This document shows, piece by piece, positions 36,383 through 36,876 of a stretch of DNA of 64,000 nt. Both the position numbers and the translations under genes were made by a program. The stretch covers positions 682,001 to 746,000 of the forward strand of contig JADEYG010000007.1 of the NCBI GenBank assembly GCA_016906335.1, given 5' to 3'. This DNA comes from Novakomyces olei (Eukaryota). The notes under the pieces are model-generated. The model searched no databases, was not told where the DNA came from, and saw only the letters and a program-made list of their open reading frames with translations. Position 1 is the stretch's first letter, and every line of letters begins with the position of its first letter.

Positions 36383-36876
36383 ATGCAAATTTTCGGTAAG
36401 CTTTATGGCTTTGCAGCTCATTCCAACTATTTTACTAATCTTTAGTTAAAACTCTTACCGGCAAAACGATCACTCTAGAAGTAGAGTCGTCCGACACTAT
36501 TGATAATGTCAAATCCAAGATTCAAGACAAAGAGGGAATCCCCCCCGACCAGCAAAGACTGATTTTTGCTGGAAAGCAGCTGGAGGACGGCCGTACACTT
36601 TCAGACTATAATATTCAGAAGGAGTCCACTCTGCATTTGGTATTACGGTTGCGTGGCGGTATGCCAGTAAAACAGAAAAAGTGCGCCTTTGCGCCTTGCA
36701 CGTCACCAGTACTACGCTTTGTTGGTGACTGCAGTGCCTGCTCTAAAAGCTTCTGTGGTCGCCACCGACTTATGGAGGATCATACCTGCGATAAGCTAGC
36801 GGATGCTAAAGTACAGGAGCGGGAGCGTAATCGCTCCCGTCTTGAGGCACAGCAGTGCGTCGCCAGCAAGGTATAG
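36383..36876 (+). CDS. Ubiquitin-AN1 zinc finger fusion protein, 2 exons
   Basis: Intron 36396-36445. Canonical 76-aa ubiquitin ending LRLRGG, fused to a 71-aa tail with C-x4-C-x10-C-x2-C-x4-C-x2-H-x5-H-x-C. Confidence 0.95.

Follow-up and report, generated by a model that had tools for sequence, protein, structure and literature searches.

The reason why cells make ubiquitin only in fused form remains a matter of debate, according to a 2021 review (PMC8122580). The locus studied here, in a 64,000-nt window of the Novakomyces olei genome, encodes a perfect ubiquitin joined to an AN1 zinc-finger tail, and raises the question of what this tail is and whether the fusion is a precursor from which ubiquitin is released. 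Our answer, which we hold to be highly probable, is that the locus is an intact, spliced Ub-AN1 precursor gene from a (Ub)1-3-AN1 family that is widespread in fungi and Amoebozoa, that the fusion partner is the counterpart of yeast Tmc1, and that the product is cleaved after the terminal GG into free ubiquitin and a Tmc1-like factor.

Gene structure and domains

The gene and its parts are as follows.

36383-36395, + strand: exon 1, ATGCAAATTTTCG, with the ATG, the codons for MQIF and the first base of ubiquitin V5; A at -3
36396-36445, + strand: intron, 50 nt, phase 1, with 5' GTAAGC, a branch-like TACTAAT at 36433-36439 and 3' TAG
36446-36876, + strand: exon 2 in full, with stop TAG at 36874-36876
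36446-36660, + strand: ubiquitin part of exon 2, V5 to G76, ending LRLRGG, with the GG codons at 36655-36660 (Pfam ubiquitin, E 4.5e-30)
36661-36873, + strand: tail of 71 aa, Tmc1-type by its HMMER relatives, with MPVKQKK, AN1 finger, helix and CVASKV
36682-36801, + strand: AN1 zinc finger, tail residues 8-47, C-x4-C-x10-C-x2-C-x4-C-x2-H-x5-H-x-C (Pfam zf-AN1)
36796-36852, + strand: alpha-helix predicted by AF2 after the finger, tail residues 46-64, kept in the family and in Tmc1
36856-36873, + strand: C-terminal motif CVASKV, from alignment with relatives, followed by the stop TAG at 36874-36876

The spliced coding sequence of 444 nt is in frame and encodes 147 aa, a 76-aa ubiquitin ending LRLRGG and a 71-aa tail that begins, without a linker, at the Met encoded from 36661 (LRLRGG-MPV, with the hyphen marking the junction here and below). 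If the intron were retained, translation from the ATG would end with the intron's final TAG; the first ATG in the exon-2 frame is the tail's own Met. Joining the two exons restores MQIFVKTLTG exactly, and the exact restoration of MQIFV by exon 1 is no chance event. An earlier note on this DNA had read the same intron, 76 codons of canonical fungal ubiquitin and an AN1 tail, and every statement it made about the sequence was correct.

The exon-2 product matches Pfam ubiquitin PF00240 at E 4.5e-30 (103.7 bits, cut-off 25.4) and zf-AN1 at E 1.2e-10. All 76 residues of the ubiquitin agree with those of repeats 2 and 3 of P0001, a triple-ubiquitin relative, and of both ubiquitin repeats of Morchella importuna P0180 (100% identity); against human ubiquitin there are 3 differences, as there are for yeast ubiquitin (PDB comparison). 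Judged by its sequence, then, the domain is ubiquitin proper, beyond a mere ubiquitin-like domain (UBL). A tblastn search of the 64-kb window found one ubiquitin unit and one AN1 tail and no more.

The tail alone matches zf-AN1 PF01428 over residues 8-47 at E 2.5e-11 (43.9 bits, cut-off 27.9), bearing out the AN1 assignment that the note had made from the sequence alone. It carries a complete C6H2 ligand set (C8, C13, C24, C27, C32, H35, H41 and C43), with all eight ligands in invariant columns of a 42-sequence family alignment, and F31 directly before C32; a Phe preceding the penultimate chelating Cys is a mark of AN1 fingers given in PMC5035049. In an AF2 model of the 142 exon-2 residues, pLDDT is 90 or higher for the bulk of the ubiquitin domain and falls to 67 in the junction block; pTM is 0.46. 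Two independent domains, arranged like beads on a string, would give such values. Modeled alone, the tail has a mean pLDDT of 79.9 and a helix at residues 46-64, and Foldseek ranks 1-11 for it are all AN1 entries, the best being 1wfe at probability 1.00.

We also inspected the surroundings of the gene, where the following features lie.

36152-36158, + strand: TATAAAA, possible TATA box 231 nt upstream of the ATG (motif scan; consensus match only)
36278-36297, + strand: (TA)10 microsatellite about 85-105 nt upstream of the ATG (direct reading and TATA-pattern scan)
27916-29128, + strand: ORF piece, Band_7/prohibitin-like (Pfam)
30162-30656, + strand: ORF piece, COX24_C (Pfam)
32756-33286, + strand: ORF piece, CNOT11 (Pfam)
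39278-40336, + strand: ORF piece, zinc-ADH (Pfam)
41313-41966, + strand: ORF piece, GDPD (Pfam)
44386-44766, + strand: ORF piece, Translin (Pfam)

Pfam on 14 neighboring ORFs returned ordinary housekeeping domains and nothing tied to Ub-AN1; the Band_7/prohibitin-like match falls in two pieces that are likely one intron-split gene. A scan of 900 nt upstream of the gene for stress motifs showed one two-unit TTCACGAA at 36008 and no other, and no three-unit HSE (at most 1 mismatch), STRE, PACE (at most 1 mismatch) or AP-1 site, a blank that says little given that the motifs are yeast-derived. A presumed stress induction of the gene is without promoter support from yeast-type motifs.

The tail and its relatives

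An exhaustive HMMER search with the tail alone against 1.84 billion representative proteins returned 463 with E<=1e-3, of which 50 have E<=1e-10. Most matches span tail residues 1-71 or 4-71 and sit at the C-terminus of the target, so the conserved unit is the entire tail, from the Lys-rich start through the AN1 finger and helix to a [CT]VA[SN]KV-like end. Neither this search nor a word-indexed protein search, which gave no candidate for the tail, revealed a close orthologue; the nearest relative is P0001, with 52% identity.

One match links the tail to a yeast protein. P0026 (150 aa; E 1.3e-11, tail residues 4-71 aligned) shares 99% of its residues with a protein of S. cerevisiae, and its closest relatives that bear a name are labeled 'YOR052C-like' and 'Tmc1p'. 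Between P0026 and the window tail, 29 of 64 residues are the same (45%, BLASTP E 1e-20), along finger, helix and C-terminus. Tmc1 and the tail share a C-terminal AN1 finger, a C-x4-C first dyad, RHRLME(D/N)H, a post-finger helix (family consensus CKxxxHERNAxKLxSE) and a similar C-terminal end, while Tmc1 differs in having an 84-residue N-terminal region before its first finger Cys (C85) and no ubiquitin domain (Pfam: zf-AN1 only). The ends CVASKV, TVASKV or CIASKV recur in P0001, P0009, P0012, P0097, P0116 and most of the (Ub)n-AN1 proteins listed. A CaaX-type reading of CVASKV was rejected, as the Cys occupies the sixth position from the C-terminus and many relatives have Thr in its place.

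Cuz1, the other yeast AN1 protein considered, matches the tail over 26 residues only (E 2.6e-4, PDB sequence search). The Cuz1/ZFAND1 proteins share its AN1 fold, and 1wfe, mouse ZFAND1 finger 2, is its best PDB match (sequence E 8e-7, fold probability 1.00), but they are described as having an N-terminal AN1 finger, a C-terminal UBL and an LDFLP/RDFLP motif (PMC5035049), and the window protein is not one of them. LDFLP is absent from the window tail, and PMC5035049 describes Tmc1 as being without it. The tail is therefore of the Tmc1 type, since it matches Tmc1 over its full length, whereas Cuz1 matches briefly, has the opposite domain order and carries LDFLP. The earlier note had mentioned Tmc1 alongside Cuz1 as a yeast AN1 protein; the connection is stronger than it knew, with the entire tail, finger and rest, aligning with Tmc1/YOR052C. 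Yeast Tmc1 is reported to be arsenite-inducible and associated with the 19S cap and to protect against As(III) and Sb(III), by a mechanism described as not yet known (PMC10616229).

Three other systems resemble the window protein in part. ZFAND4/ANUBL1 and Xenopus An1 also have an N-terminal ubiquitin-like domain and a C-terminal AN1 finger, but in the window an exact ubiquitin abuts the finger region, whereas ZFAND4 is long, with residues 1-459 left out of an alignment figure in PMC5035049; none of our searches showed specific similarity of the window protein to ZFAND4. ZFAND5 on the 26S proteasome (PDB 7qxw chain v) has, like the tail, a near-C-terminal AN1 finger followed by a helix, a weak Foldseek match (rank 5, 67 columns, TM 0.51, E 0.2, 27% identity) that is a lead only; unlike the window protein, ZFAND5 has an N-terminal A20 finger. 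Ub-eL40 and Ub-eS31 likewise join one canonical ubiquitin via GG to a small, basic, zinc-binding tail and are presumably processed by deubiquitinases (DUBs), and the sequencing runs that contain the window locus also contain a Ub-eS31-type paralogue. Unlike eL40 and eS31, however, the window tail is no ribosomal protein (Pfam finds zf-AN1 only), which sets it outside the ribosomal fusions, and Ub-AN1 is lineage-restricted and decayed or lost in many fungi.

Fusions of the window's kind turned out to be common. In P0001, the best tail match, the tail follows directly on three ubiquitins (98, 100 and 100% identical), and both P0001 and P0002 have the junction GG-MPVK, as in the window, next to tails 51-52% identical to the window's. 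Saitoella complicata P0223 is 73% identical over all 142 exon-2 residues. Among the best 150 of the 463 tail relatives, 7 have a canonical ubiquitin (at least 90% identical) just upstream, all ending GG; 32 have a divergent UBL by BLASTP (14 ending GG, 18 without GG), and the other 111 have no BLASTP-detectable ubiquitin or UBL. Pfam, which is more sensitive than BLASTP, found PF00240 at E<=0.01 in 23 of the first 60 tail relatives, above cut-off in 12, and zf-AN1 in 60 of 60. A profile search with 15 Ub/UBL-AN1 sequences as query listed 120 proteins ranked by bit score; the tail is present in 65 of these, always behind two or three ubiquitin repeats, and 58 of the 65 have a canonical last repeat ending GG. 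Ranking by bit score favors multi-ubiquitin forms, so the rarity of single-ubiquitin forms cannot be read from this list.

The note had allowed that similar fusions may exist in other fungi; they do, widely, and in amoebae as well. Named sources are Saitoella complicata (Taphrinomycotina); Morchella, Tuber and Choiromyces (Pezizales); Phycomyces, Absidia, Rhizopus, Mucor and other Mucorales; Umbelopsis; Gigaspora and Ambispora (Glomeromycotina); and the amoebozoan Planoprotostelium. An ESM Atlas cluster of 146-aa proteins, commonest in Basidiomycota, has both domains in 99%. Several database relatives are fragmentary or mis-spliced gene models; P0102 and P0116 seem to be genes with one ubiquitin whose introns were called wrongly.

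Across the family the ubiquitin part forms a graded series, from exact ubiquitin with GG (window, Saitoella, Mucorales) through divergent UBLs that keep RGG-MP (P0005, P0098) and UBLs without GG to no UBL at all. A survey of relatives for intact ubiquitin against degenerate UBL, which the note had proposed, thus turned up both, plus members with neither. Its statement that AN1-associated UBLs are typically divergent holds for the best 150 tail relatives, with 32 divergent against 7 canonical, but not for the profile search, which added 58 further clusters with canonical ubiquitin. In P0005, P0007 and P0098 the UBL is 33-50% identical to ubiquitin and the junction ...LRGG-MP.KK is kept, a pattern which suggests that processing may outlast ubiquitin identity.

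At the far end of the series, 19 tail-only relatives have a start Met equivalent to window M77 (M[PA]xKK..C), and for some of these entries an upstream ubiquitin exon was probably overlooked in gene calling. Stand-alone tail-like proteins of 65-100 aa also occur in 51 IMG/VR viral loci (L001-L051), many of them from giant-virus bins. They have a Lys-rich start, an AN1 finger, a helix and a KCVAAKI- or KCVASKV-like end (for example L013:1402-1650 and L005:1318-1713), and tblastn found ubiquitin beside 0 of the 51; in L005 the N-terminus resembles a divergent UBL. The ESM Atlas also lists, for Nucleocytoviricota, an AN1 cluster of 144 aa.

The window protein is an ordinary member of this broad and already tabulated family. 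Like the (Ub)n-zf-AN1 proteins that databases name 'polyubiquitin', 'polyubiquitin 5' or 'ubiquitin C' (P0223, P0180, Mucorales, Acanthamoeba castellanii), it has a canonical ubiquitin ending GG that abuts the AN1 tail, a short Lys-rich stretch, the finger, the post-finger helix and a CVASKV-type end within the [CT]VA[SN]KV pattern. It differs from the 65 tail-bearing proteins of the profile list, which favors repeats, in having one ubiquitin against two or three, and its junction is GG-M without a linker. The 2021 review PMC8122580 states that, in unusual architectures of ubiquitin fusions, no partners are more frequent than zf-AN1 and zf-RRN7, at about 1.2%. Its supplement counts ubiquitin~zf-AN1 29 times, ubiquitin~ubiquitin~zf-AN1 36 times and 3xUb~zf-AN1 twice, summary rows included, with Absidia, Syncephalastrum and Acanthamoeba castellanii as examples. 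For two algae, Sibbald et al. 2019 (PMC6332867) list fusions of ubiquitin to a 'zinc ring finger', 145, 199 and 273 aa long and backed by RNA-seq. Our full-text literature searches found no use of 'ubiquitin-AN1' or 'Ub-AN1', no paper joining polyubiquitin, AN1 and 'C-terminal extension', no link of Tmc1 to a ubiquitin fusion and no functional study or experiment on any Ub-AN1 member. The architecture is already on record, and what we add is the full-length link to Tmc1, selection over conversion and the graded states of the ubiquitin.

Divergence from the ubiquitin paralogues

The note had left open whether exact ubiquitin identity reflects selection or gene conversion. We compared the locus with contigs from two public DNA-type runs, X1 and X2, that contain it (aligned at 80% likeness); these runs may be the window's own source. 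They were the only runs listed with the locus, and no RNA run was among them. X2 covers 36477-37100 with 0 differences from the window. A 4139-nt contig differs from 36441-36641 at 40 of 201 bases (~80% DNA identity) and continues LRLRGG-AKKR, of the Ub-eS31 type; it has no intron at this position (loose end ...ATGCAGAT). A second contig differs from 36550-36638 at 15 of 89 bases (~83% identity) and continues GG-MQI, as in polyubiquitin, and a third is NEDD8-like (...ISRIKEKVEE...), with the NEDD8-like gene present in both runs. Depths in X2 are 4.3 for the window's own locus, 3.8 for the NEDD8-like contig and 16.6 for the polyubiquitin unit; in X1 two long contigs have depths of 1080 and 1168. 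From the similar depths and the contigs shared between runs, the paralogue contigs appear to come from the same organism as the window.

When the 30 listed differences are placed in the window codons, every one proves synonymous; ~60% of codons have changed silently relative to the paralogues, with no change in the protein. Divergence that is silent only, at ~80-83% DNA identity, shows that purifying selection keeps the ubiquitin perfect and excludes recent conversion from these paralogues. The fusion is also old, since the same GG-MPVK junction and a perfect ubiquitin stand beside tails only ~50% identical, which again points to selection. Of the note's two alternatives, the evidence favors selection.

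A young chimera, ongoing conversion from polyubiquitin or an unexpressed relic locus could each also account for a perfect ubiquitin, and concerted evolution of ubiquitin genes is well documented, as PMC6332867 relates. We find this explanation hardly credible here, with identity to the paralogues of only ~80% (40/201) and 83% (15/89) and changes that are synonymous in 30 of 30 cases. Also against it are the intact ORF, splice signals, eight zinc ligands and C-terminal family motif, and a junction shared with P0001 and P0002, whose tails are only 51-52% identical to the window's.

Relative to the Ub-eS31-type paralogue, the changes are mostly from A/T in the window to G/C at third codon positions (17 of 26 tallied, X1), so the ribosomal fusion gene is more GC3-biased than the Ub-AN1 gene. 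To judge from this codon usage, expression of the Ub-AN1 gene may be lower or conditional.

Probable processing and function of the fusion protein

DUBs are known to process Ub-X fusions for any X but Pro. Among 64 distinct members with canonical ubiquitin, GG is followed by M, A, G, S, T, V, N, D or I, but in no case by Pro. We infer that the gene is expressed and its product cleavable, the latter from a GG-M junction like that between polyubiquitin repeats, from the tandem ubiquitins of relatives and from the constant absence of Pro after GG. The importance of the GG is illustrated by a Giardia case in which its alteration blocks cleavage (PMC8122580). By analogy with polyubiquitin and with Ub-eL40 and Ub-eS31, DUBs would cut after G76 and release one functional ubiquitin together with one free 71-aa basic zinc-finger protein starting Met-Pro. 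The ubiquitin would feed the ubiquitin pool, and the free tail would most likely act at the proteasome as Tmc1 does. The note's own proposal, a DUB-cleavable precursor, was in essence right. That the free tail of ~70 aa is an autonomous unit is indicated by the 19 tail-only relatives and the 51 viral loci that encode the module alone.

The ubiquitin may also aid production of the small, basic, zinc-binding tail, as has been proposed for the ribosomal tails, although this is speculation. Fusion of ubiquitin to a ribosomal protein reportedly 'facilitates ribosome biogenesis', in the words of one paper's title.

Alternatively, the protein could stay uncleaved, with ubiquitin serving as a UBL in cis, for example by docking to proteasome ubiquitin receptors in the manner of ZFAND4/An1- or Rad23-type proteins, and AN1 as the effector. 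A UBL followed by AN1 is the founding AN1 architecture, that of Xenopus An1, whose mRNAs are said in a paper's title to 'encode ubiquitin-like fusion proteins'. The junction is also without GG in 18 of the 32 BLASTP-detectable UBL members, so an uncleaved form works in some lineages, and with no UBL at all in Tmc1 the ubiquitin-like part can be dispensable in others. The window is different: its ubiquitin is exact, and Met comes after LRLRGG just as it does where one polyubiquitin repeat meets the next. Relatives with two or three ubiquitins in tandem make sense only as processed precursors, and Pro is missing after GG throughout the 64 canonical members. A perfect protein with synonymous divergence is moreover what release into the pool predicts, whereas a UBL in cis would be free to drift, as it has elsewhere. 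We therefore regard an uncleaved protein as unlikely.

Very unlikely, in our estimate, is that the tail is made mainly alone, starting at the Met encoded from 36661, through an internal promoter or alternative transcript, with the ubiquitin exon contributing little. The junction Met does correspond to the start Met of the 19 tail-only relatives, and giant-virus contigs do encode the AN1 module alone, but strict conservation of the ubiquitin codons at the protein level requires their translation, and some tail-only entries, being fragmentary models, probably missed an upstream ubiquitin exon. A translated and cleaved Ub-AN1 precursor remains our preferred reading.

The Ub-AN1 tail is small, Lys-rich and zinc-binding like the ribosomal tails, yet as a fusion partner it belongs to the ubiquitin-proteasome stress response, and the family gives a functional handle on Tmc1. 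Fungi variously keep the ubiquitin perfect, decayed or lost and so offer a comparative system for the role of a fused ubiquitin toward its partner. More tentatively, Ub-AN1 is conceivable as a third ancient class of ubiquitin precursor, beside polyubiquitin and the two ribosomal fusions, that was present in the ancestor of fungi and Amoebozoa and of which Tmc1 is a ubiquitin-less descendant. On this reading the graded ubiquitin series would suggest that the fused ubiquitin primarily serves the tail, as an aid to folding or production in cis or by setting its N-terminus, and Ub-AN1 would couple ubiquitin supply stoichiometrically to a proteasome-stress factor.

A last observation concerns the residue that cleavage would expose. 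While the window has GG-M, some (Ub)n-AN1 proteins of the Mucorales type (P0009, P0218, P0219 and P0209) have Asn or Asp after GG (GG-NGLEE, GG-DETM), and one protein has Ile. Asn, Asp and Ile are destabilizing N-terminal residues under the yeast Arg/N-degron rule, and cleavage at GG-N, GG-D or GG-I could set a short half-life for the AN1 protein in those relatives.
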